NCBI GenBank assembly: GCA_963791345.1
Contig: CAWBRS010000021.1
Span: forward strand, 208,225-272,224
Length of the DNA stretch: 64,000 bases
Direction: 5' to 3'
From: an uncultured Thermoleophilia bacterium
Lineage (GTDB): Bacteria > Actinomycetota > Thermoleophilia > UBA2241
A model generated the notes under the pieces. It had not been told where the DNA came from and made no database searches. It was given only the letters and a program-made list of their open reading frames with translations. Positions 9,038-64,000 of the stretch are shown here, piece by piece; position 1 is the first letter of the stretch, and every line of letters starts with the position of its first letter. Made by a program: the position numbers and the translations under genes.

Positions 9038-9124
9038 CAGAGCGAGAAGGGCAAACCTGTCGTGAGGCAGGGACGCAAAGCCAGAGGTCTTGGATGCTCA
9101 AGATAGCTCGGTTGCCGAATTCAG
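9038..9124 (+). promoter_or_regulatory. Candidate c-di-GMP-I (GEMM-I) riboswitch aptamer
   Basis: GGGCAAACC (9049-9057), a 6-bp stem CCUGUC/GGCAGG closed by the GNRA loop GUGA, GGGACGCAAAGCC (9070-9082) and a 3' strand AUAGCUCGGUUGCCGAAU. This matches the Vc2-type signature as I remember it. It lies 127 nt upstream of the ATG at 9251. Confidence 0.7.
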
Positions 9125-17142: not shown

Positions 17143-17218
17143 TGGTGGCGAGGCCCAGAGTCGAACTGGGGACACCATGATTTTCAGTCATGTGCTCTAC
17201 CAGCTGAGCTACCTCGCC
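17143..17218 (-). tRNA. tRNA-Phe (anticodon GAA) with encoded CCA
   Basis: The reverse complement is GGCGAGGTAGCTCAGCTGGTAGAGCACATGACTGAAAATCATGGTGTCCCCAGTTCGACTCTGGGCCTCGCCACCA. It forms a 7-bp acceptor stem, a D-arm GCTC/GAGC, an anticodon loop CTGAAAA and a T-loop TTCGACT. Confidence 0.95.
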
Positions 17219-47696: not shown

Positions 47697-47725
47697 TTGA
47701 CAGGCCAGGTCGCGTGCGGTAGATT
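47697..47725 (+). promoter_or_regulatory. Sigma-70-type promoter of rex
   Basis: TTGACA (47697-47702), a 17-nt spacer, then TAGATT (47720-47725), about 70 nt upstream of the start at 47793. Confidence 0.6.
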
Positions 47726-47741
47726 GTGAATCGGTTCACAG
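47724..47741 (+). promoter_or_regulatory. Rex operator (ROP box) overlapping the -10 element
   Basis: TTGTGAATCGGTTCACAG fits the Rex consensus TTGTGAA-N4-TTCACAA. The Streptomyces ROP is TGTGAACGCGTTCACA. Confidence 0.75.
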
Positions 47742-47792: not shown

Positions 47793-48495
47793 GTGGTCTC
47801 ACGCAAGACGGTCGCGCGCATGAGCAGGTATCGCCGCCTGCTCACGGCCCTGCACGCGGCCGGCACCGAGAGCATCTACTCGCATCAGCTCGCGCGCCAC
47901 GCCGTGGTCAGTGCCCCGCAGGTGCGCCGCGACCTCATGGCGATCGGCTACTCGGGCAGCCCCAACAAGGGGTACGACGTCGCCGCCTGCATCGCGAGCA
48001 TCGCGGCCTTCCTCGACGGCGACGCCCGGCAGGACGTGTGCCTGGTCGGGGTCGGCAACCTCGGCCGCGCCGTCCTCGCCCACTTCGCCGAGGCGAGCCC
48101 TTCGGTCGCGATCGTCGCCGCCTTCGACAGCGACCCGGCCCTGCGCGACGCGGTCGTCCACGGCTGCCGCTGCTTCGGCGCCGAGCGCATGGAGCAGCTG
48201 GTGCGCGACCTCGGCATCGACATCGCCGTGCTCACGGTCCCCGGCGAGGCCGCGCAGCAGGTGGCCGACACCCTCGTGCGCGCGGGCGTGAAGAGCCTGA
48301 TCTCCTTCGCCCCCACGCCCCTGCAGCTCCCGCACGAGATCTTCGTCGAGTACATGGACATCACCGCGGCGCTCGAGTCGGCGGCCTATTTCGCCCGGCT
48401 CGGCGCCCGTACGAACGGCAACGGCGAGGCCGGCGAGGCCGAGCTCGCACCGATGGTGCGGCAGCTCGGCTCGCTGCTGGCGAGGAAGAGGATGA
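47793..48495 (+). CDS. rex: Redox-sensing transcriptional repressor Rex; the 3' end is uncertain
   Basis: Motifs RMSRYRRLL, SHQLA....SAPQVRRDLMAIGYSGSPNKGYDV and VCLVGVGNLGRAVL (Rossmann). As sequenced the frame runs on without a stop. A TGA at 48493-48495 in the +1 frame overlaps the next ATG. Confidence 0.8.
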
Positions 48496-48919
48496 GACTC
48501 GAAGAGCTCGCAAAGGACATCGGGGCCCGCGTCGTCACGCCGGGCCGCCCGGGTGGCACCGAGGTCACCCGCATCTACGCCGGCGATCGCGTCAGCGACC
48601 TCCTCAACGAGGCCTCCGACACGACGCTGCTCGTGAGCAACCTGGCCAGCGTCCAGATGCTCCGCGTGGCCGAGCTGATGGACGTGCCCGGCATCTGCTT
48701 CGTCGGCGGCATCGAGCCCGACGACGATGTCATCGAGCTGGCGCGCGCCAACGGCACCCTGCTCATGGTCTCGCCCGTCGGGGTCTTCGAGACCTGCGGC
48801 CTGATCTACCGCTACCTCGGCGGCGAGCGGGAGCAGGGCGCGAACGGCGCCGCCGCGAACGGCGGCGCGGCGCGCCGCAGCGCGAGACCGGCGGGCGCGG
48901 CGCCCGGGACGGAGGCTGA
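48492..48919 (+). CDS. DRTGG-domain protein, copy 1; the 3' end is uncertain
   Basis: MRLEELAKDIGARVV..RIYAGDRVSDLLNEASDTTLLVSNLASVQMLRVAELMDVPGICFVGGIEPDDDVIELARANGTLLMVSP matches the small DRTGG proteins I recall from hydrogenase loci. The end is assumed to be the frame-2 TGA at 48917-48919. Confidence 0.55.
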
Positions 48920-48927
48920 CCGGCGGC

Positions 48928-50624
48928 GTGCAGTACCTCACCTACACGATCCGCGGCAACGACTACAACGAGGCGGGCGCCGCCTCGCGCCTGGTGAAGC
49001 ATCACCTGAAGCGCGTCGGCGCCGACCCCGAGGCGATCCGGCGCACGATGATCGCCGCCTACGAGGCCGAGATGAACGTCGTCATCCACGCCCACCGCGG
49101 GGTGCTCGAGGCGCGGCTCGGCGACTGCCGGGTCGACGTCGACGTCGTCGACGAGGGCCCCGGCATCCCCGACGTCGAGCAGGCGCTGCGCGAGGGGTTC
49201 TCGACGGCCTCGTCCGAGGCCCGCGCCCTGGGTTTCGGGGCCGGCATGGGCCTGCCCAACATCCGGCGCAACAGCGACACCCTCGAGATCGACACGACCC
49301 CGGGCAAGGGGACGCGCGTGAGCTTCAGCGTCAGCCTGAGGCCCGCCTGCCCGACCGACGTCGAGCGCCCGCGCTCGGTGGCCGTCGCCCCGGGGCGCTG
49401 CCGCCAGTGCCTGCACTGCCTCACCGCCTGCCCGACGGCCGCCCTGCGCGTGCGCGACGGCGAGCCCCTGCTGCTCGAGCACCTCTGCATCGACTGCACC
49501 GCCTGCGTCGCCGTCTGCGAGCCCGCCGCCCTGACGATCGACGAGACCGGCGGCGAGCCCGAGCGCGCGACCGAGCTCGTGGCCCTGCCGCCGGCCTTCC
49601 TCGCCGGCTTCGGCGGCGAGGCGCCGCCGGCCGTCGTGGCCCGCGCCGTCGAGACCGGCGGCTTCGCCCGCGTCGTCGCCGCCGACGGCTACGAGCACGC
49701 CCTGCACGACGCCGTGCTCGCCATGGCTCGCGAGGCGGCGGGCGGCGGCGCGACCGGCGGCGAGACCGAGAGCGCGGCGGGCGCGACCGCCGACACGACG
49801 CCCGACGAGACGGCCGCCGCGACGCGCCCCGGCCGGCGGCCGCTGCCGCTGATCTCGCCGGTCTGCCCCGCCGTCGTCAATCTCGTCGAGCTGCGCTTCC
49901 CCTCGCTGCTGCCGCACCTGGCGCCGTTCGCCTCGCCCTGGGAGGCGCTGCAGGACGACGCCGGCGGCGCCTCGGCGACCTTCGTCGTCTCGTGCCCGAG
50001 CCAGCGCACCGCGCTGCTCGAGCGGCGCGCCAGCGGCCTGCGCGGCATCATGACCCCGGCGCGCCTGCGCGAGCGTGTGGCGCCGCTGCTCGCCGGCCAC
50101 GAGGCCGTCGCCGGGCCGGCCCACGGCGCGTCGGCGGCCGCTGCAGCCGAGGTCGACGGACCGGGCGACGCGACGGCTCGCGGCGACCGCGAGACGCTGG
50201 TCGTCAACGGGTTGTCGCACGTCCTGCGCGTGCTCGAGGAGCTCGAGGACGGCCTCCTCGACGACGTGCTCGCCGTGCGAGCCCTACGTCTGCGACGGCG
50301 GCTGCTTCGGCTCGCCGCTGCTCGCCGAGGACGCCGCCGTCGCCGCTCACCGCTGGCGCGGCGGCGCCGCTGCGCCGCGGCCCCGGGGTCGCCCGCCCGC
50401 CGCACCGCGCGCCGGCGGCGCGCCCCGGCATCCGCCTCGACGCCGACATGTCGCGCGCCATCGCCAAGCTCGCCCGTCTCGACGAGCTGACCCGCTCGCT
50501 GCCCGGGCGCGACTGCGGCGCCTGCGGCGCCCCGACCTGCGCGGCGCTCGCCGAGGACATCGTCCTCGAGCGCGCCGCGCGCGCGCTCTGCCCGTACGTG
50601 ACCGAGGAGGAGGCACAGTCATGA
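48928..50624 (+). CDS. RsbW-type serine-kinase-like HATPase fused to a 2x[4Fe-4S] ferredoxin, an [FeFe]-hydrogenase-large-subunit-like domain and a C-terminal Fe-S (DCGACG) domain; two frame breaks
   Basis: HATPase part: EAEMNVVIHA..VDEGPGIPD..GFGAGMGLPNIRR..GKGTRVSF. Ferredoxin part: CRQCLHCLTACP..CIDCTACVAVCEP. Hydrogenase-like part: ISPVCPAVVNLVE and, read from the DNA, VEPYVCDGGCFGSP. The tail is LPGRDCGACGAPTCAALAEDIV. Breaks lie near 50270 and 50390. Confidence 0.7.
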
Positions 50625-53225: not shown

Positions 53226-56200
53226 ATGGCTGACGTGAGAAGTCACTTCCTGATCTGCACCGGCGGCGGCTGCATCGCCTCCGGCGCCCTCGACGTGAGC
53301 GAGGCCGTGCGCGCCGAGCTCAAGGCGCGCGAGCTCGCCGGCGAGGTCGACGTCGTCGAGACCGGCTGCCTCGGCCCCTGCGTGCAGGGCCCCGTGGCGC
53401 TCGTCTACCCCGACGGCGTCTTCTACCAGAACATCAAGGTCGACGACGTGCCCGAGATCGTCGAGGAGCACCTGCTCAAGGGCCGCGTCGTCGAGCGCCT
53501 CGTGAGTCACGCGCCCGGCACCGACCGGACCCAGGCGGAGATGGACGACATCCCGTTCTTCAACCGCCAGGTCAAGATCGTGCTGCGCAACTCGCGGCAT
53601 CATCGACCCGCTCAACATCGACGAGTACATCGCCCGCGACGGCTACCAGGCCCTCGCCAAGGTGCTCACCGAGATGACCCCCGAGCAGGTCGTCGACGAG
53701 GTCCTCGCCTCCGGCCTGCGCGGCCGCGGCGGCGCCGGCTTCCCCACCGGGATGAAGTGGCGCTTCGCCCAGCAGCAGGACAACGACACCAAGTACATCC
53801 TCTGCAACGCCGACGAGGGCGACCCCGGCGCGTTCATGGACCGCTCGGTGCTCGAGGGCGACCCGCACTCGCTCATCGAGGGCATGGTCATCGGCGCCTT
53901 CGCCATCGGCGCGCACCAGGGCTACGTGTACGTGCGCGCCGAGTACCCGCTCGCCGTCGAGCGCCTCGAGCACGCGCTCGGGCAGGCGCGCGAGTACGGC
54001 CTGCTCGGCAACGACATCATGGGCAGCGGCTTCGACTTCGACCTCGAGATCCGCATGGGCTCCGGCGCCTTCGTCTGCGGCGAGGAGACCGCGCTCATGA
54101 CCTCGATCGAGGGTCACCGCGGCGAGCCGCGCCCGCGCCCGCCGTTCCCGGCGGTCTCGGGCCTCTGGGGCAAGCCCAGCGTGCTCAACAACGTCGAGAC
54201 CTTCGCCAACATCGCGCCGATCATCCTCAAGGGCGCCGAGTGGTACGCGAGCACCGGTACCGAGAGCAGCAAGGGCACCAAGGTGTTCGCGCTCGGCGGC
54301 AACGTGCAGCACACCGGCCTCGTCGAGGTCCCGATCGGCATGCAGCTCGGCGAGCTCATCTACGAGGTCGGCGGCGGCATCCCGAACGGCAAGGCGTACA
54401 AGGCCGCCCAGCTCGGCGGCCCCTCGGGCGGCTGCATCCCCAAGGAGCACCTCAACGTGCCCGTCGACTACGCCACCCTGCAGGAGCTCGGCGCGATCAT
54501 GGGCTCCGGCGGCGTCATCGTCATGGACGAGGACACCTGCATGGTCGACATCGCCCGCTTCTTCCTCGAGTTCACGCAGGAGGAGAGCTGCGGCAAGTGC
54601 CCGCCGTGCCGCGTCGGCACCAAGCGGATGCTCGAGATCGTCGAGCGCATCTGCCACGGCGAGGGCGAGGAGGGCGACATCGAGCGCCTCATCGCCCTCG
54701 GCGAGTCGATCAGCCAGACCGCGCTCTGCGGCCTCGGCCAGACGGCGCCCAACCCGGTGCTCTCGACGATCCGCCACTTCCGCCACGAGTACGAGGCCCA
54801 CATCAAGGACAAGTACTGCGAGGCCGGCGTCTGCTCGACGCTGTTCAAGGCGCGCTGCTCCAACGCGTGCCCGGCGAGCGTCAACATCCCCGGCTTCGTG
54901 AGCCTCGTCGGCGAGGAGCGCTACGACGACGCGCTCAAGCTGCACCGCGAGCGCAACCCGCTGGCCAGCATCTGCGCCCGCGTCTGCTTCCACCCCTGCG
55001 AGAGCAAGTGCATGCGCTCGAGCCTCGACGGCGCCCTCGCGATCCGCCACGTCAAGCGCTTCATGGTCGAGCAGGAGAAGGACGCCGCAGCTGCCGGAGA
55101 TCCTGGAGAACGCCGAGAACGCGGCCCGCAAGGTCGCCGTCGTCGGCTCCGGGCCCGCCGGCCTCTCCGCCGCCTACTTCCTCGCCCGGCTCGGCTACAA
55201 GCCGGTCGTGTTCGAGGCCGAGCCCAAGGCCGGCGGCATGCTCGTCCAGGCCATCCCGGCCTACCGCCTGCCGCGTCCCGAGCTCGAGCGCGAGATCGAG
55301 ATGATCGAGGCCATGGGCGCGCGCTTCGAGTACGGCAAGGCGCTCGGCCGCGACTTCACGCTCCAGAGCCTCAAGGACGAGGGCTACGAGGCCGTGTTCG
55401 TCGGCGTCGGCGCCCCCGCAGGGCATGGGCATCGGCGTCCCCGGCGAGGACGGCCCCGGCGTGTACGACGGGCTCTCCTTCCTCAAGCAGTACAACGTCC
55501 ACGGCACCGGCGAGGTCGGCAAGAACGTCGCCGTGATCGGCGGCGGCAACGCGGCCATCGACGCCGCCCGCACCGCCCTGCGCCTCGGCGCCGAGTCGGT
55601 CAAGATCCTCTACCGCCGCACCCGGGCGCAGATGCCGGCGTGGGGCGAGGAGATCGACGCCGCCGACCTCGAGGGCATCGACATCATGACGCTCGTCGCC
55701 CCGGAGGAGATCCTCCGCGACGCGAGCGGCAAGGTCACCGGCGTGCGCTGCAAGGAGATGGCGCTGGGCGACTACGACCGCAGCGGCCGTCGCCGTCCGG
55801 TGGCCGGCCACAACCCCGACTTCGTGGTCGAGGCCGACACCGTCATCGCCGCCATCGGCCAGAAGCTCGACGCCGCCGCCGTCCTGGACGGCACCGCCGT
55901 CGAGCTCAACCGCTGGGGCTACCTCGCCGGCCGACCCGAACACCGGCCAGACCTCGGTCGACTGGGTGTTCACCGGCGGCGACGCCGCCACCGGCCCGTC
56001 GTCGGTCGTCGAGGCCATCGGCGCCGGCGAGCGGGCCGCGGCCGGCATGGACGAGCTCCTGACCGGCGCCAACCACGCCTTCTGGCGCCGCGACATCGAG
56101 CCGCCGACCTTCTTCGACCCCGACGCCGACCCCGAGCTGGTCGATCGTCACGAGGTCGAGGAGCTGGCCGGTCGCGGCCCGCGTCACCAACTTCGACGAG

Positions 56201-56284
56201 GTCGAGCTGGGCTGGGCCGCACAGGTGGCCCTCGCTGAGGCGAGGCGCTGCCTGCGTTGCGACTACGGCAAGTACGGCTCGTGA
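53226..56284 (+). CDS. hydB: NuoF-like flavoprotein subunit (HydB/HndC-like) fused to a GltD/NfnB-like NAD(P)H:FAD oxidoreductase module; about 5 frame breaks
   Basis: The N-terminal 2Fe-2S Trx-like part is [14 protein letters not shown]. The NuoF core carries [27 protein letters not shown] and [10 protein letters not shown]. The GltD-like part carries [55 protein letters not shown] and a C-terminal [13 protein letters not shown]. Breaks lie near 53600, 55085, 55420, 55935 and 56165. Confidence 0.8.
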
Positions 56285-56301
56285 GCAAGGAGAGCAAGAG
56301 G

Positions 56302-58074
56302 ATGCCAACCCTGACCATTGACGAGATCAAGGTCGAGGTGCCGGAGGGCACCACGGTCCTTCAGGCGGCCCGCCAGGCCGGCGTGAAGATCCCCACCCTC
56401 TGCTTCCTCGACGACGTCCAGTCCATCGGCGCCTGCCGCGTGTGCCTCGTCGAAGTCGAGGGCGCCCGCACGCTGGTCGCCTCGTGCAGCCAGCCGGCGA
56501 CCGACGGCATGGTCGTCAAGACCAACACCGGCAAGGTGCGCGACGGCCGCAAGATGGTCGTCGAGCTGCTCCTCTCGGAGCACGACGGCGACTGCCAGGT
56601 CTGCGGCCGGTCCGCCGACTGCGAGCTGCGCACGCTCGCCGACGAGCTCGGCATCGGCGACCTGCGCTACGAGGGCGAGAAGACCTTCCGGATGATCGAC
56701 GAGAGCACCCCGGCGCTCATCCGCGACACCGGCAAGTGCATCTCCTGCCGCCGCTGCGTGACGGTGTGCAACGAGGTCCAGGAAGTGGGCGGCCTGTTCG
56801 CCCAGGGCCGCGGCTTCGCCACCCTCATCGGCCCGGCCTTCTCGCAGAACCTGAGCGACGTCGTCTGCGTGCAGTGCGGCCAGTGCGCCGCCGTGTGCCC
56901 CGTGGGCGCCATCCAGGAGCGCAACCAGATCGACGAGGTCTGGGACGCGCTCGAGGACCCCACCAAGACCGTCATCGTGCAGACCGCGCCGGCGATCCGC
57001 GCCGCGCTCGGCGAGTGCTTCGACTACCCGGCCGGCACCCTGGTGACCGGCAAGATGGTCGCCGCCCTGCGCCGGCTCGGCTTCGACGCCGTCTTCGACA
57101 CCGACTTCACCGCCGACCTCACGATCATGGAGGAAGGCACCGAGCTGCTCGTGCGCCTCAAGAAGGCGCTCGTCGACGGCGAGCAGGTCGCTCTGCCGCA
57201 GTTCTCCAGCTGCTCCCCGGGCTGGATCAACTACATGGAGCACTTCAACCCCGACATGCTCGCCAACCTGAGCACCTGCAAGAGCCCGCAGCAGATGTTC
57301 GGGGCGATCGCCAAGACCTACTACGCCGAGAAGATCGGCGTGAAGCCGGAGGACATGGTCGTCGTCTCGGTCATGCCCTGCACCGCCAAGAAGTACGAGG
57401 CGGCGCGCCCGGAGATGAACGACAGCGGCGTGCAGGACGTCGACATCGTGCTCACCACGCGTGAGCTCGGCGCGTTCATCAAGCAGGCCGGCATCGACTT
57501 CCGCAGCCTGCCCGACGAGGAGATGGACGCGCCGCTGGGCATCAGCACCGGCGCCGCCGACATCTTCGCCAACACCGGCGGCGTCATGGAGGCGGCCCTG
57601 CGCACGGCGTGGGAGATCGTCACCGAGACGCCGTTCCCCTTCCCCAACCTGCACGTCGAGCCCATCGAGGGTCTCGAGGGCGTGAAGGTCGCCACCGTCA
57701 AGGTCGAGGGGGCCAAGGGCGACTGGGCGTTCCTCGAAGGCGCCGACCTCAAGGTCGCCGTGGCCCACGGCCTCGGCAACGCGCAGAAGGTCATCGACCA
57801 GGTCAAGAGCGGCGAGGCCGAGTACCACTTCGTCGAGGTCATGACCTGCCCCGGCGGCTGCATCGGCGGCGGCGGGCAGCCGCGCTTCACGACCAACGAG
57901 GTGCGCATGAAGCGCATCGAGGCCATCTACCGCGAGGACGAGGGCCGCGAGCTGCGCAAGTCGCACGAGAACCCCGCCGTCTGCGCCCTGTACGAGGAGT
58001 ACCTCGGGGCGCCGTGCGGCGAGATCTCGCACCACCTCCTGCACACCCACTACTTCGAGCACGACCGCGTCTGA
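56302..58074 (+). CDS. hydA: [FeFe]-hydrogenase catalytic subunit (M3 architecture: 2Fe-2S, a His-ligated 4Fe-4S, two 4Fe-4S clusters and an H-cluster domain)
   Basis: Intact ORF. The start is taken at MPTLTIDE. N-terminal cluster motifs are CFLDDVQSIGACRVC, HDGDCQVCGRSADCEL, CISCRRCVTVC and CVQCGQCAAVCP. H-cluster motifs are P2 VMPCTAKKYE, P3 EVMTCPGGCIGGGGQP and an atypical P1 SSCSPGW. Confidence 0.9.
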   Translation: MPTLTIDEIKVEVPEGTTVLQAARQAGVKIPTLCFLDDVQSIGACRVCLVEVEGARTLVASCSQPATDGMVVKTNTGKVRDGRKMVVELLLSEHDGDCQVCGRSADCELRTLADELGIGDLRYEGEKTFRMIDESTPALIRDTGKCISCRRCVTVCNEVQEVGGLFAQGRGFATLIGPAFSQNLSDVVCVQCGQCAAVCPVGAIQERNQIDEVWDALEDPTKTVIVQTAPAIRAALGECFDYPAGTLVTGKMVAALRRLGFDAVFDTDFTADLTIMEEGTELLVRLKKALVDGEQVALPQFSSCSPGWINYMEHFNPDMLANLSTCKSPQQMFGAIAKTYYAEKIGVKPEDMVVVSVMPCTAKKYEAARPEMNDSGVQDVDIVLTTRELGAFIKQAGIDFRSLPDEEMDAPLGISTGAADIFANTGGVMEAALRTAWEIVTETPFPFPNLHVEPIEGLEGVKVATVKVEGAKGDWAFLEGADLKVAVAHGLGNAQKVIDQVKSGEAEYHFVEVMTCPGGCIGGGGQPRFTTNEVRMKRIEAIYREDEGRELRKSHENPAVCALYEEYLGAPCGEISHHLLHTHYFEHDRV

Positions 58075-58125
58075 GACGCGGCGCACGGAAGACGGCGGCC
58101 GGGCGCGTGGGCGGCGCGCCCGCGA

Positions 58126-58151
58126 GGCGGCCCCGGGAGACCGGGGCCGCC
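58126..58151 (+). terminator. GC-rich hairpin downstream of hydA
   Basis: 11-bp stem ggcggccccgg / ccggggccgcc with loop gaga. Confidence 0.45.
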
Positions 58152-58237
58152 TCCGGGGCCGCCGCGAGCCGGCCGAGCCATAGTCGCCGCAGCGACTACT
58201 GGGGGCCCGAAGGCCACGCTATACTGAAGGCGGAACA

Positions 58238-58646
58238 TGAGCGCAGAGCACAGGCACTGATACTCATCGTCGACGACGACTTCGACTTCCTCGAGATCAA
58301 CCGCATCATCCTCGAGGGGGCCGGCTACCGCGTGGTCACCGCCACCAACCCCGCCGAGGCGCAGACGCGCATCGACGCCGAGGCGCCCGACCTCGTCATC
58401 ACCGACCTGATGATGACGAGCATCGACGCCGGCTTCGCCTTCGCCGCCCGGCTCAAGGGCGACCCGCGCACCGCCGGCGTGCCGATCATCATCAGCACGT
58501 CGGTGAGCAGCGCGCTCGGCCTGAACTTCCGCCCCGACTCGGCCGAGGACCTCGCCAAGATGAACGTCGACGCCTACTTCGACAAGCCCATCGACGCGCA
58601 GGCGCTGCTCGCCAAGGTCGGCGAGCTGCTCGCCGCCCGCGGCTGA
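58238..58646 (+). CDS. Single-domain response regulator (CheY-like receiver); one frame break near the start
   Basis: Motifs [28 protein letters not shown] and YFDKP. The ATG at 58238 follows a TATACT -10-like hexamer and is out of frame with the receiver body. The break lies near 58255. Confidence 0.7.
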
Positions 58647-58667
58647 TGCGCCGCCGGGTGCCGGCCG

Positions 58668-60740
58668 ATGAACGAAGACAGAGTCCCCTACCTCCAGCTC
58701 GTCACGACCATCCGGCGAGAAGTGCCGCCGGTGCTACACCTGCGTGCGCGAGTGCCCGGCCAAGGCCATCCAGATCGAGGACGGCCAGGCGAGCGTCATC
58801 CAGACGCGCTGCATCGGCTGCGGCAACTGCGTCACCGTCTGCAGCCAGAACGCCAAGCAGGTGCTCAGCGGCATCGAGGCCACCGAGGACCTGCTCGCCG
58901 GCGACGCGCCCGTCGCGGCGATCGTGGCGCCGAGCTACCCGGCCGAGTTCACGGAGTGCAGCACGGCCGGCCTGGTCGGCGCCCTCCGCGAGCTCGGGTT
59001 CGCCGAGCGTCCACGAGGTGAGCTTCGGCGCCGACCTCGTCGCCGCGCGAGTACGCCCGCCTGCTCGAGCGAGGACGACGGGCGCCACATCGCCACCACC
59101 TGCCCGGCGGTGGTCAGCTACGTGCGCAAGTACCACCCCGACATCCTCGACCGCCTCGCGCCCATCGTCTCGCCGATGCTGGCGATCGCGCGCGTGCTGC
59201 ACAAGAAGTACGGGCCCGAGCTCAAGATCGTCTTCGTCGGGCCCTGCATCGCCAAGAAGGGCGAGGCGCGCTACGAGCAGTTCGAGGGCGAGGTCGCACG
59301 CGGCGCTCACCTACGTGCGAGCTCCGCGCCCTGCTCGCCGCGCGCGGCGTCGAGCCTCGACCGTCGCGCGACGCGCCGGCGACGACTTCGACCCGCCGCA
59401 CGGCAGCCTCGGCGCCCTCTTCCCCATCACCCGCGGGCATGCTGCAGGCGGCCGACCTCGACGAGGACCTGCTGAGCGGCGACATCGTGAGCGCCGACGG
59501 GCGCGCAGAACCTGGTCGAGGCGATCACCGACTTCGAGCACGGCGACACCGAGGCGCGCCTGCTGGACATCCTCTGCTGCGAGGGCTGCATCATGGGCGC
59601 CGGCTTCAGCTGCGAGGAGCCGGTCTTCAAGCGCCGCTCGGACGTCAGCGCCGAGACCCGCGCCCGCCAGGCCGGCTTCGACCAGGCGGCCTGGGAGGCC
59701 GCGGTCGCGCGAGTACGCCGACATCGACCTCTCGCGCACCTTCGCGCCCTTCGACCAGCGCTTCGACGACATGCCGACGCAGGAGGAGCTGCGGGAGATC
59801 CTCGCGCGCATGAACAAGTACGGCGACGAGGACGAGCTCGACTGCGGCGCCTGCGGCTACGACTCCTGCCGCGACCACGCGGTCGCCATCTGGCAGGGGC
59901 TCGCCGAGGTCGAGATGTGCCTGCCGTACTCGGTCGAGGAGCTGCGCAAGACCGTCGACGAGCTGCAGCAGTCCAACCTCTCCCTGGAGACGACCAAGGA
60001 GGCGCTGGTCAAGAGCGAGAAGCTCGCCAGCATGGGCCAGCTCGCGGCCGGCATCGCCCACGAGGTCAACAACCCGCTCGGCATCCTCCTGCTGCACGCC
60101 AACCTGCTGCTCGAGGACTGCGAGGACGACACCGCAGGACGGCCGAGGACGTCAAGCTCATCGTCGACCAGGCCAACCGCTGCAAGAAGATCATCTCCGG
60201 CCTGCTCAACTTCGCCCGCCAGAGCCGGGTGGTGCGCCAGCCGACGGACCTCACCAACCTGGTGGCCGAGGTCCTGCGCACGCATCCCCGTCGCCGAGGG
60301 CGTCTCGGTGGAGGTCGACGACCACCTCGAGGACCCCGATCGCCGAGCTCGACGGCGACCAGATCGTCCAGGTGCTCACCAACCTGCTCACCAACGCCCA
60401 GCACGCGATGCCCGACGGCGGCACGCATCACGGTCACGCTCGACGGCACCGAGGAGAACGTCATCGTCACCGTGCGGGACGAGGGCACGGGCATCCCCGA
60501 CGGAGAACCTCGACAAGCTGTTCAGCCCGTTCTTCACGACCAAGCAGGTCGGCAAGGGCACGGGCCTCGGCCTCGCCGTGACCCACGGCATCGTCAAGAT
60601 GCACCGCGGCCAGATCACCGTGGAGTCCAACGCCGACCCCGCCACGCGGCCCGACCGGCACCACGTTCAGCATCTCCCTGCCGAGGTACGAGGCGGAGAC
60701 GGACGTCCCGGCCAGCCTGCAGGAGATCACCGGGAGCTGA
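58668..60740 (+). CDS. Sensory [FeFe]-hydrogenase-like domain fused to a histidine kinase (2x[4Fe-4S] ferredoxin, H-cluster-like domain, DCGACG Fe-S domain, HisKA, HATPase_c); many frame breaks
   Basis: Read across frames: [25 protein letters not shown]-cluster-like motifs are [21 protein letters not shown] and [12 protein letters not shown]. The Fe-S domain is [19 protein letters not shown]. Kinase motifs are [33 protein letters not shown] and [15 protein letters not shown]. Confidence 0.75.
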
Positions 60741-60743
60741 GGC

Positions 60744-62044
60744 ATGAACCCCGACCCGACAGCCCGCGAGAGCCTCATGGACCCGCAGCAGGTCACGCTC
60801 AAGGTCGTCATGGTCGACGACGAGGAGGCGCTCTGCCTCGGCGTGCGCCGCATCATCCAGAAGTACAAGGTGCACGTCGCCGACGTGCTCGTCGACGCCG
60901 ACTACGAGTTCCGCTACTTCACCAGCGGCGAGGACTACCTCGCCTGGCTCGGCGAGGGCGGCGAGGTCGACCTCCTGCTGCTCGACCTCAAGCTGCCGGG
61001 CGTCGGCGGCATGGACGTCCTCGACGCCATGAGCGCCCAGGGCCGTGAGGTCCTCACCATCATGATCACGGCCTACGCGACCTTCGAGACGGCCGTCAAG
61101 GCGACCAAGCTCGGCGCCTACGACTTCCTCGCCAAGCCGTTCACCCCGGAGGAGCTCCGCTACGCGCTGCGCAAGGCGACGAGCCAGCTCATCCTGAGCA
61201 AGCAGGCGCGCAAGCTCGCCGAGGAGAAGCGCGAGATCCGCTTCAACTTCATCTCGGTGCTCGCGCACGAGCTCAAGGCGCCGCTCAACGCCGTCGAGGG
61301 CTACCTCAACATCCTGCGCACGACCGAGGCCGACCAGAACCTGCAGATGGTCGAGCGCAGCATCGTGCGCGTGGACGGCATGAAGAAGCTCATCATGGAC
61401 CTGCTCGACCTCACGCGCATCGAGTCCGGCCAGCGCGAGCGCGTCGATCAGGCGCCTCGACCTGCGCGAGCTGGCCAAGGCGTCGATGGAGCTGTTCGCC
61501 GTCGACGCCGAGCGCCGCGGCATCACCGTGAAGCTCGAGGACGCGCGACGACGTCGAGCTCCTGGCCGACCCCGGCGAGGTCGAGATCGTCTTCAACAAC
61601 CTCATCTCGAACGCCGTCAAGTACAACCGCGACGGCGGCGCGCGTGCAAGGTCAAGCTGAGCCGCAAGGGCGACGCCGTGACGCGTCACCGTCAGCGACA
61701 CCGGCATCGGCCTCAGCGCCGAGGAGGCCGGCAAGCTGTTCAACGAGTTCAAGCGCATCAAGAACGAGCAGACGGTCAAGATCCTCGGCAGCGGCCTCGG
61801 CCTCAGCACGGTGCGCAAGATCGCCAACATGTACGACGGCGAGGCGAGGGTCACGAGCGAGCCCGGCGTGGGCAGCACCTTCACGGTCACGCTGCACGAC
61901 GCGCCGCCGGCGGCCGCGGGCGAGACCGGCGAGCCGCGCGACGCCGCCGTCCGGCGGCGCCGCAGCTCTGATCGAGCGGCCCCGTCTTGGCTCGCGACTT
62001 CGCGCCTGTGCGAAGATGTGCGATACTACCAGCGACGCTCGTGA
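60744..62044 (+). CDS. Hybrid receiver-histidine kinase (REC, HisKA, HATPase_c); at least 4 frame breaks and an uncertain 3' end
   Basis: Motifs [63 protein letters not shown] and [12 protein letters not shown]. Breaks lie near 61445, 61545, 61650 and 61685. Confidence 0.75.
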
Positions 62045-62275
62045 CCCCTTGCACAAGCGGCCGCACGATGCGTTAGATACTGAGCGCAGCTGAGGCCAGT
62101 ACCGAACGTGGATCCTGTGGAGTGAGCGGCCAGCACTCGACGTCACTCTCGTCCGTCCCTGCCTCTTCGGCACCCGCCGTGGTCGTCCGCGACCGGCGCT
62201 CGTGTGCGCCTCGCGACGGTCGCGCGGCGGGCGACCCGCCTCGCCAGGGGGAACAGAAACGGACTGAAGGAGTGC

Positions 62276-62651
62276 GTGGTGCCCAAGATTCTCATCGTTG
62301 ACGACGACCCGGACATCGTCGATGCCGGCCGCCTGGTCCTCGAGCGTGAGGGCTACGAGGTCGTCGGCGCGCCCAACCGCGCCGAGGGCATGAAGAAGCT
62401 CGAGGAGATCAAGCCCGACCTCCTCATCCTCGACGTCATGATGGAGGAGCCGGACGACGGCCTCCGCATGGCGCGCGAGATCCGCAAGAACGGCAACGAC
62501 GGTGCCGATCATCATGCTCACCAGCGTCAACGCGGCCATGGGCCTCAACATCGACAAGGACGGCGAGATCGTCCCGGTCGACGAGTTCCAGCCCAAGCCG
62601 GTCGAGCCGCAGACGCTGGTCGCCAAGGTCAAGAAGCTCCTCGAGCAGTAG
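62276..62651 (+). CDS. Single-domain response regulator (receiver); one frame break
   Basis: A GAAGGAG RBS precedes the GTG start. Motifs KILIVDDDPDIV, PDLLILDVMMEEPDDG and, read from the DNA, PIIMLTSV...FQPKPV. The break lies near 62500. Confidence 0.7.
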
Positions 62652-62664
62652 GAGAGGACTCCAG

Positions 62665-63165
62665 ATGGCAACGACCACGACACCAAGACCAGCTCGCGCC
62701 GACGTCGCGGCCCTGGTCGAGAAGCTCGGCCCGGGCAGCAGCTCTCTCATCCCGATCCTCGCGGATGTCAAGAGGCGCTTCCACGAGGTCGACTCCGAGT
62801 CCATGCAGACCATCGCCGACGTGCTCGACATCCACCCCGTGGAGGTCTACAGCGTCGCCTCGTTCTACGCCTTCCTGCACGGCGCCCCCGAGGGCCAGTT
62901 CGTGATCCGGCTCTGCGGCACGCTCTCGTGCGACTTCGCCGGCAAGGACGCCGTCGCCGACGCCCTGCAGAACGAGCTCGGCGTCGGCTTCGACGAGTCC
63001 ACCGACGACGGTCTCTTCACGCTCGAGTGGGCGAGCTGCGTCGGCATGTGCGACCAGGGCCCCGCCCTGCTCGTCAACGACCGAGGTCCACACGCGGGTC
63101 ACGCCCGAGCAGGTGCGCGAGATCGTCGCCGCCTGCCGGGCCGCGCCGCGGCCGAGGAGGGCTGA
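62665..63165 (+). CDS. Second NuoE-like [2Fe-2S] subunit; one frame break
   Basis: Motifs LIPILADV, IRLCGTLSCDFAG and ASCVGMCDQGPALLVND. The break lies near 63085. Confidence 0.7.
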   Translation: MATTTTPRPARADVAALVEKLGPGSSSLIPILADVKRRFHEVDSESMQTIADVLDIHPVEVYSVASFYAFLHGAPEGQFVIRLCGTLSCDFAGKDAVADALQNELGVGFDESTDDGLFTLEWASCVGMCDQGPALLVNDRGPHAGHARAGARDRRRLPGRAAAEEG

Positions 63166-63168
63166 GCC

Positions 63169-64000
63169 GTGGCGACCACGATCGAGACCAGGGCAACGCC
63201 CTCACCTACGAGACCATCGAGCCCGAGGCCGGCCTCAAGGCGGCGCTCGCGATCAGCCGCGCCGACCTCGTCGACTTCGTCGCGCGACAGCGACCTCAAG
63301 GGTCGCGGCGGCGCCGGCTTCCCCACGGGCATGAAGTGGGACTTCTGCGCGGCGGAGAAGGCCGACCAGAAGTACATCATCTGCAACGCCGACGAGGGCG
63401 AGCCCGGCACCTTCAAGGACCGGGTCATCCTCACCCGAGTTCGCCGACCTCGTCTTCGAGGGCATGACCATCGGCGGCCGCGCCATCGGCGCGTCGCTCG
63501 GCATCGTCTACCTGCGCGCCGAGTACACGTACCTGCGCTCGCACCTCAACGAGGTCATCCAGCATCGTCGCGCCAAGGGCCTGCTCGGCCACGACATCAT
63601 GGGCGTCGAGGGCTTCGACTTCGACATCCTCGTCGCCATGGGCGCCGGCGCCTACGTGTGCGGCGAGGAGACCGCCCTCATCGAGAGCCTCGAGGGCTTC
63701 CGCGGCGAGCCGCGCAACCGCCCGCCGTTCCCGGTGGTCGCCGGCCTGCTCAACAACCCGACGGTGGTCAACAACGTGGAGACGCTCGCCTCGGTGGCCT
63801 GCGATCTTCGCCAAGGGCGCCGACTGGTTCAAGGGCTTCGGCACCGACAAGTCGACCGGCTACAAGCTGTTCAGCATCTGCGGCGACTGCGAGAAGCCGG
63901 GCGTCTACGAGTTCCCGTGGGGCATCACGGTCGCCGAGCCTGCTCGAGGAGGTCGGCGGCGACGGGCGCCAAGGCCGTGCAGATCGGCGGCGCCAGCGGC
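63169..64000 (+). CDS. Second NuoF-like flavoprotein subunit; partial at the window edge, with several frame breaks
   Basis: Read across frames: [44 protein letters not shown] and NNVETLA. Confidence 0.7.

Follow-up and report, generated by a model that had tools for sequence, protein, structure and literature searches.

A HydS-type hydrogenase-like module fused to a histidine kinase, located between two hydrogenase operons of a Thermoleophilia bacterium

We analyzed a 64,000-nucleotide (nt) stretch of contig CAWBRS010000021.1 from an uncultured Thermoleophilia bacterium (the window; G+C content, ~70%). A locus situated between two hydrogenase operons in this window carries a gene for a hydrogenase-like Fe-S protein fused to a histidine kinase, designated the sensor. 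Judged from its sequence, the locus probably encodes a cytoplasmic, soluble histidine kinase with a complete HydS-type input that putatively senses H2. Ligand and catalytic residues of the fusion protein are conserved, its gene is under purifying selection and belongs to a conserved three-gene cassette, and structural and maturase genes of hydrogenases accompany it.

Three-frame translation of 58.1-62.7 kb gave frame-shifting but sensible protein throughout on the + strand. The frames were joined by stitching, and Pfam was run on the frame-repaired proteins. An earlier note on this DNA had described, after hydA, a receiver (REC), a protein of ~690 amino acids (aa), a REC-HisKA-HATPase kinase, and another receiver. 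This gene order was matched by the three-frame translation and Pfam, and the span given for it, 58238-62651, extends from the start of the first receiver (REC1) to the end of the last (REC3) within 3 nt. The features of the locus are as follows.

56302..58074, + strand: hydA1, encoding the large catalytic subunit of an [FeFe]-hydrogenase, 590 aa when counted from the ATG of the orthologue; intact, no indels
58237..58649, + strand: REC1, stand-alone receiver, 136 aa; 129/136 residues identical to the orthologue
58668..60740, + strand: the sensor, a HydS-type protein with a fused histidine kinase; 684 aa once 19 inserted bases are removed
58723..58842, + strand: two [4Fe-4S] ferredoxin motifs of the sensor (C19, C22, C25, C29; C48, C51, C54, C58)
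58912..59607, + strand: hydrogenase-like domain (H-domain) of the sensor, from Pfam, HMMER, and alignment
59095-59106, 59239-59265, and 59566-59589, + strand: H-domain motifs TTCP, GPCIAKKGE, and DILCCEGC, respectively
59843..59920, + strand: C-terminal Fe-S domain, CGACGYDSC-x16-C (PF04060; C389, C392, C397, C414)
59921..60013, + strand: helical linker, starting right after the last cluster Cys (helix 415-436 of the structural model)
60014..60222, + strand: DHp/HisKA domain, with phospho-acceptor His461 in AHEVNNPL at 60059-60061
60351..60692, + strand: HATPase_c catalytic domain (N571; G1 box DEGTGI; F box FSPFFTTK; G2 box GTGLGL)
60744..61969, + strand: REC-HisKA-HATPase kinase (REC::HK), ~408 aa; 377/409 residues identical to the orthologue, 3' end noisy
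61970..62269, + strand: spacer of ~300 nt, the sole sizeable gap within the cassette
62270..62654, + strand: REC3, stand-alone receiver, 123 aa, opening the second hydrogenase unit
62665..64000, + strand: NuoE2, then the first part of NuoF2, both from the second hydrogenase, up to the window end

Of these genes, hydA alone has an unbroken frame in the window; frames are broken in the sensor, REC1, REC::HK, and REC3. When the sensor (58668-60740) was aligned with an intact orthologue (92.4% nucleotide identity), 19 indels were found, none of them a multiple of three: 18 insertions, of which 17 add one base and one adds two, and a single-base deletion. The corrected open reading frame of the sensor has 684 codons with no internal stop and shares 92.4% amino acid identity with the orthologue. 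REC1 loses its frame just past the ATG (58237) through 1-nt insertions at 58248 and 58250, ~5 frame breaks are present in REC::HK, and one lies in the coding part of REC3. One-base insertions occur across NuoE, NuoF, REC::HK, REC3, NuoE2, and NuoF2. Homopolymer-type read error was considered as the source of the breaks and rejected because the insertions lie outside homopolymers (0/19 sensor indels in a homopolymer context).

The sensor gene is under purifying selection. Its ratio of nonsynonymous to synonymous substitution rates (dN/dS) against the orthologue was 0.18, and the corresponding values were 0.21 for REC::HK and 0.14 for the intact hydA. Because the sensor value is near that of hydA, the frame breaks are most likely sequence noise. 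A point against this reading is that the insertions are uneven, with none in 56340-58175 (hydA) or 53600-55080 (the NuoF core). We regard it as quite improbable that the sensor and parts of the relay have truly been inactivated by frameshifts in this genome. In favor of a pseudogene, uniform read error would not predict 19 indels in the 2.07-kb sensor and none in the 1.8-kb hydA. However, similar one-base insertions strike NuoE, NuoF, NuoE2, and NuoF2, and in sister assemblies the breaks fall in other genes of the same cluster. The only premature stops are those that the shifts create, the dN/dS ratio is low, and the 18:1 bias toward insertions resembles read error more than decay.

The hydrogenase-like and kinase parts had been taken to form one gene, and the corrected open reading frame and the database matches bear this out. 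A search with the stitched protein yielded over 100 clusters of intact proteins, 660-690 aa long, whose Pfam set equals that of the sensor. Among the 120 clusters listed, nearly all were 660-690 aa in length and carried Fe_hyd_lg_C, FeS, HisKA, HATPase_c, and Fer4-type families. The best matches were 88-92% identical to the sensor and, where named, came from Thermoleophilia metagenome assemblies; the contigs that encode them run collinear with the window and share 89-92% of its nucleotides. A scan of GTDB species genomes detected full-length kinase-fused members with 41-57% identity in at least 10 phyla. These included Desulfobacteraceae, Anaeromyxobacteraceae, Polyangiaceae, Bdellovibrionales, Planctomycetota (including Kuenenia), Verrucomicrobiota, Bacteroidales, Melioribacteraceae and other Ignavibacteria, Elusimicrobiota, Spirochaetota, Neomarinimicrobiota, and Syntrophorhabdaceae.

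The 426-aa sensor module was also compared with 1.84 billion representatives clustered at 50% identity, and 990 relatives were obtained at E ≤1e-30. A directly fused kinase was present in ~45 of the best 150. Other fusions, identified by a phmmer screen and by Pfam on a 10-protein sample, joined the module to PAS-HATPase, kinase-REC, HisKA_3, GAF-GAF-kinase, GGDEF, and a sigma-54 activator with HTH_8. Individual examples (P0147, P0154, P0157, P0163, P0172, and P0185) carry GGDEF, a sigma-54 activator plus HTH_8 with or without PAS, GAF-GAF-kinase, or PAS-kinase-REC-REC. Because several signaling outputs are fused to it, the sensor module appears to be a portable, modular input domain.

Pfam analysis of the repaired sensor detected Fer4 twice (residues 14-63), Fe_hyd_lg_C (82-310, E 3e-46, over the full model length), PF04060 FeS (389-418), HisKA (454-516, E 6e-12), and HATPase_c (559-669, E 2e-27). 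The predicted domain order of two [4Fe-4S] motifs, H-domain, Cx2Cx4Cx16C Fe-S domain, helical linker, HisKA, and HATPase was thereby recovered. The cysteine motifs that the earlier note quoted do occur in the sensor, and the C-terminal one is exactly Cx2Cx4Cx16C. The kinase half has the features of a class I histidine kinase, namely an H-box His together with N, G1, F, and G2 boxes. No PAS family was detected in the sensor by Pfam at E values up to 0.01; the PAS domain of the M2f type is therefore lacking, and the helix leads straight to HisKA.

The residues around the active site were mapped by HMMER alignments of the sensor to solved hydrogenases, using CpI numbering, with the following correspondence.

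T143, CpI C299: proton relay, lost
C144, CpI C300: H-cluster ligand
G190, CpI M353: flanks the di-iron site
C192, CpI C355: H-cluster ligand
L299, CpI M497: flanks the di-iron site
C301, CpI C499: H-cluster ligand
C304, CpI C503: H-cluster ligand

Alignment to CpI thus agreed with the expectation that all four H-cluster Cys positions are kept and that Thr stands in place of the proton-relay Cys. The last two H-cluster Cys are spaced CxGC, one residue less than the CPGGC of CpI. Conservation was evaluated in 30 kinase-fused homologues with 34-81% identity. The eight ferredoxin Cys, C192, C301, C304, and the four Cys of the C-terminal motif were invariant in 30/30 homologues, and C144 and H461 were retained in at least 90% of them. 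In the kinase half, N571, D599, G601, G603, and G627-L630, corresponding to the N, G1, and G2 boxes, were invariant. Position 143 was occupied by T, S, P, A, L, N, W, or F, and Cys was found there in 0/30. The sensor therefore has the core of the putative sensory groups C and D: two [4Fe-4S] motifs, Cx2Cx4Cx16C, and replacement of all of C299, M353, and M497.

We then inspected an AlphaFold2 model of the orthologue P0001 (pLDDT 77, pTM 0.60). In this model, a helix (415-436) directly follows C414, and the DHp helices span residues 446-480, with H461, and 485-514. Foldseek matched the first ~430 residues to DdH of D. desulfuricans, CbA5H, and CpI (E 2e-19, TM 0.61-0.68), and the C-terminus to the ZraS kinase core (9jfj; TM 0.58-0.60). 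No HydS-type structure was found in the PDB copy searched.

The HydS-type sensory core, consisting of two [4Fe-4S] motifs, an H-domain without C299, and Cx2Cx4Cx16C as defined in PMC8163306, was correctly recognized in the earlier note. In that scheme, Cx2Cx4Cx16C defines the putative sensory subclasses M2e and M2f (PMC8163306). Two proteins with the same two [4Fe-4S] motifs, four-Cys H-domain, and Cx2Cx4Cx16C motif have been characterized: TmHydS of Thermotoga maritima (group C/M2f) and TamHydS of Thermoanaerobacter mathranii (group D/M2e). Both are slow, CO tolerant, and Hred stabilizing (PMC8163306). Like them, the sensor is without Cys at CpI position 299. It shares Gly at M353 with TmHydS and Leu at M497 with TamHydS, and all three are encoded beside a multimeric group A hydrogenase. 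They differ in their C-terminal parts: TmHydS ends in PAS and TamHydS is without an output domain, whereas the Fe-S domain of the sensor leads into HisKA-HATPase, with dedicated receivers alongside. The loss of the proton relay and of both Met residues, as in the two characterized proteins, supports by analogy an H2-responsive kinase.

TamHydS and TmHydS keep measurable H2 turnover (PMC8163306), which would suit a protein that is mainly a slow hydrogenase and whose kinase domain regulates something unrelated to H2. We consider such a role highly improbable. The proton-relay Cys is missing from every one of the 30 aligned homologues, and in the model the kinase is joined to the Fe-S domain by a continuous helix. 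Moreover, elsewhere the module is placed on GGDEF, sigma-54 activator, and PAS-kinase outputs, which is the behavior of a sensor domain.

Among the closest described systems is BfuT of Hydrogenedentota and Caldithrix abyssi, a group C protein with a fused kinase encoded next to bfuABC, beside bfuA/hydA of a NuoE-NuoF-HydA cluster. In PMC11406978 (mSystems 2024), BfuT is described from sequence and predicted structure only. From architecture and synteny, we infer that the sensor and BfuT belong to the same family. Neither the partner proteins (receiver and REC::HK), nor a layout with two hydrogenases, nor Thermoleophilia is mentioned in the accessible text of that paper. The earlier note had placed the sensor in [FeFe] group C1. 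HydDB does describe C1 as "histidine kinase-linked (putative)", with its role undetermined (PMC5037454), and to that extent the statement held. The label itself is doubtful for the sensor, since PMC11406978 reports that BfuT with a His-kinase domain is filed by HydDB under C3 (reference WP_006928132.1) and that the C1 members studied, from Hydrogenedentota, have a bare HATPase_C and are without H-cluster motifs. The C1 label is probably wrong for the sensor, and that description of C1 suits instead a SpoIIAB-like paralogue encoded upstream (see below).

In its logic, the sensor also resembles the HoxBC/HoxJ/HoxA system ([NiFe] group 2b), in which a slow, inhibitor-tolerant hydrogenase and a kinase govern hydrogenase genes (PMC5037454, PMC8163306). 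The metal site and fold of HoxBC are unrelated to those of the sensor. HoxBC and HoxJ are separate proteins with a PAS-like joining region and an NtrC-type DNA-binding output, whereas the sensor is one polypeptide for which no DNA-binding partner was seen.

What follows on the insertion of an H-cluster, H2 as the signal, the sense in which the kinase is controlled, its partners in phosphotransfer, and the output is inferred; we propose this course of events. A real H-cluster is argued for because the ligands are kept and maturase genes lie nearby. H2 would arrive at the H-cluster bound by C144, C192, C301, and C304. With Thr for the proton-relay Cys and Gly and Leu for the flanking Met residues, turnover there is expected to be slow, and a reduced, H2-bound state would be long-lived. 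The resulting change in the H-domain would be relayed via the Cx2Cx4Cx16C domain, whose C414 stands at the start of the helix into DHp. In the predicted structure, this continuous helix may provide a physical path to His461, where the balance between kinase and phosphatase activities would be set. REC1 and the receiver of REC::HK are the likely phosphoacceptors because their adjacency is conserved, and phosphoryl transfer to them would give a network of two kinases in place of a His-Asp-His-Asp relay. Another receiver, REC3, opens the operon of the second hydrogenase in this lineage.

Several observations weigh against this mechanism. The CxGC spacing is shorter than that of catalytic enzymes, and H-cluster binding at such spacing is presumed from family membership. 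Linker residues 435-455 were modeled poorly (pLDDT <50). The C-terminal [4Fe-4S] cluster of TamHydS stays unreduced under 1 atm H2 (PMC13104023). The literature yielded no experiments on kinase-fused members, and the earlier statement that the class is known from sequence only agrees with our failure to find a biochemical study of such a member there. The sensory role of group C/D enzymes is still termed putative (PMC8924675), and a 2026 paper likewise calls it putative and the partners unknown (PMC13104023). A tblastn search with the three receivers found no other REC, and hence no DNA-binding regulator of this kind, in the 64-kb window, and relatives from Thermoleophilia likewise showed no DNA-binding regulator up to a distance of 10 kb. 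Because H2 does not reduce the C-terminal cluster of TamHydS, we treat this cluster as a structural coupler and not as a redox relay; by analogy, a simple redox relay through it is unlikely.

A different input was also considered. The module may read reduced ferredoxin or NAD(P)H via its N-terminal [4Fe-4S] clusters, or it may dock on HydABC as a "T" subunit; in both cases, the kinase would signal the condition of the hydrogenase or of the electron pool. We rate this as rather unlikely, with more in its favor than the other alternatives have. The N-terminal clusters are those reduced in TamHydS and are essential for integrity (PMC13104023), the sensor directly follows hydA in 27/35 loci, and a Rex-like NADH sensor opens the same cluster. 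The protein is also named as a subunit, BfuT, in PMC11406978. However, the four H-cluster ligands are kept across phyla, and a pure ferredoxin-type sensor would need none of them. Maturase genes also co-occur at the locus.

Gene context was counted in 35 loci from at least 10 phyla.

32/35 loci: REC-HisKA-HATPase gene adjoining the sensor
28/35 loci: stand-alone receiver of ~130 aa adjoining the sensor
27/35 loci: hydA directly upstream of the sensor
17/35 loci: hydG or hydE within the locus
6/35 loci: second NuoE-NuoF-HydA downstream

Three loci were without the REC::HK gene, and at least two of these were cut by a contig end. The REC::HK architecture recurs in Bacteroidales. Response_reg was detected by Pfam in REC1 (E 4e-17), REC3 (E 8e-20), and REC::HK (E 7e-21), the last also containing HisKA (E 1e-12) and HATPase (E 4e-26). 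The receivers have the expected fold, and the pattern DDD...D(L/V)MM...(S/T)...KP was readable in the corrected REC1, REC3, and REC::HK. Matches to curated NCBIfam equivalogs (AtoS, ZraS, PhoB, and others) were all far below the cut-off (e.g., AtoS, 192 bits versus 646), and none of the curated names can be given to these proteins.

The cassette had been called a phosphorelay. In the strict sense this name does not apply: no Hpt family was detected by Pfam in any of the four cassette proteins (a PF10090 match was weak and lay inside the ATPase domain), and the second kinase bears its receiver N-terminally, not C-terminally. We therefore describe a two-kinase network. The proposal that all three receivers are without DNA-binding output stood up to Pfam analysis, which showed no output domain of any kind in them. 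Other phyla do place DNA-binding regulators beside the cassette, namely REC+HTH_8 (L034) and REC-sigma54-HTH_8 (L008). In the DivJ/PleC-DivK-DivL-CckA system, a stand-alone receiver and a second kinase act downstream of a sensor kinase without Hpt or a receiver output. The cassette resembles this system by analogy of wiring only and shows no membership at the sequence level; DivK-family matches in NCBIfam were below threshold.

We also examined the surroundings of the cassette. The upstream hydA1 product matched Fe_hyd_lg_C (E 2e-96), Fe_hyd_SSU, and Fer2_4 in Pfam, and downstream a NuoE-like gene begins 11 nt past REC3. No Rfam family reached its gathering threshold between 52 and 64 kb, a stretch that covers the 300-nt spacer preceding REC3, and a scan for sigma-70 and terminator consensus sequences in 57.9-62.8 kb, spacer included, gave nothing above shuffled sequences. 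In Thermoleophilia relatives with 74-92% identity, the complete gene order is kept, as follows.

Part 1: rex, SpoIIAB-like HydS paralogue, 117-aa protein, PHP, HATPase, NuoE, 2Fe-2S protein, NuoF::GltD, HydA
Part 2: REC1, sensor, REC::HK, REC3, NuoE2, NuoF2, HydA2, GAF-kinase
Part 3: hydG, TM1266-like, aspartase-like, hydF

HydA2, the GAF-kinase, hydG, and hydF thus follow NuoF2 in relatives, and hydG, hydF, and the TM1266-like gene lie within 10 kb. REC3 orthologues with 45-51% identity precede NuoE2 in Melioribacteraceae. Loci of Melioribacteraceae/Ignavibacteria (L024-L026, L029, L030, and L039) share a layout of ~14 kb, NuoE-NuoF-HydA-sensor-REC-REC::HK-REC-NuoE2-NuoF2-HydA2-kinase. The layout common to Thermoleophilia and Ignavibacteria points to horizontal transfer of the whole module.

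REC3 opens the hydrogenase-2 operon, to which it is tightly coupled, in Thermoleophilia as well as in the distant Melioribacteraceae. Hydrogenase 2 has a minimal NuoF of 399 aa and may be non-bifurcating. One could imagine that the cassette is a non-transcriptional H2 switch between the two hydrogenases, with REC3 serving as a phospho-dependent subunit of hydrogenase 2. We consider this improbable; if true, the H2 partial pressure sensed by the HydS kinase would pick the enzyme that carries the flux.

The sensor is a Thermoleophilia member of a class already known from its sequences. To this class, the present analysis adds the evidence for noise, the residue conservation across phyla, the conserved cassette of sensor, REC, and REC::HK, and the recurring arrangement of two hydrogenases in which a receiver opens the second operon. 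Among the group C/D [FeFe]-hydrogenases, putative sensors of H2, only TmHydS and TamHydS have been biochemically characterized. With a fused kinase and receivers alongside, a direct readout is available (autophosphorylation and phosphotransfer with and without H2), and the question of the partner would largely answer itself. This advantage as a test system belongs to the whole family, in at least 10 phyla, and not to the copy in the window, whose sequence needs correcting.

Upstream of hydrogenase 1, three further features were located.

47725..47740, + strand: perfect palindrome resembling a Rex operator, TGTGAATCGGTTCACA, located 53 nt before the rex-like gene
47793..48835 (end approximate), + strand: Rex-like redox repressor of ~347 aa with a long C-terminal extension, from translation; first gene of the conserved cluster
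48930..50600 (approximate), + strand: second HydS-like module, ~525 aa; frames broken, tblastn match at 49396-49950

The palindrome was the sole match to TGTGA-N6-TCACA at ≤1 mismatch in the 64 kb (0.66 expected by chance); no Rex box was found within the cassette, the only one being that upstream of rex. Orthologues of the Rex-like protein carry Put_DNA-bind_N and CoA_binding. The palindrome and the rex-like gene suggest NADH/NAD+ control of the whole hydrogenase cluster. According to Pfam analysis of its orthologues, the second HydS-like module has an N-terminal, SpoIIAB-like HATPase_c_2, two Fer4 motifs, a degenerate H-domain, and a Cx2Cx4Cx16C FeS motif. It matched an anti-sigma F factor model (E 1.6e-13) and shared 26% identity with the sensor over 412 columns. 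Its H-domain contains SCPGQR without Lys and CDGGC.

A second HydS-like gene was also observed in Bacteroidales (L012, L035, L041, and L042). It encodes ~620-630 aa and is located on the opposite strand upstream of nuoE, and phmmer detected no kinase in it. This agrees with a remark on "two bfuT" in PMC11406978.

The flavoprotein of hydrogenase 1 (53226-56300) is a fusion of ~1017 aa between NuoF and a GltD-like Fer4_20/Pyr_redox_2 NAD(P)H domain, and a fusion of the NuoF::GltD type was also seen in Planctomycetota loci (L023 and L034). HydA1 (57180-57200, motif L1) and HydA2 have (S/T)SCSPGW where the textbook motif is TSCCPGW; Ser thus occupies the place of the Cys that serves as a [4Fe-4S]H ligand. 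We rejected the view that TSCSPGW is an oddity or an error in HydA1 and HydA2; it is a natural variant, because it occurs in 18/30 sensor-linked HydAs and in the solved bifurcating HydA1 7q4v. A text search of the literature found no discussion of this variant.

Elsewhere in the window, a full-length c-di-GMP-I-GGC riboswitch aptamer was detected at 9041-9120 on the + strand (69.9 bits versus a gathering threshold of 59, E 1.7e-14), and a tRNA gene was located at 17146-17218 on the - strand (RF00005, 71 bits).

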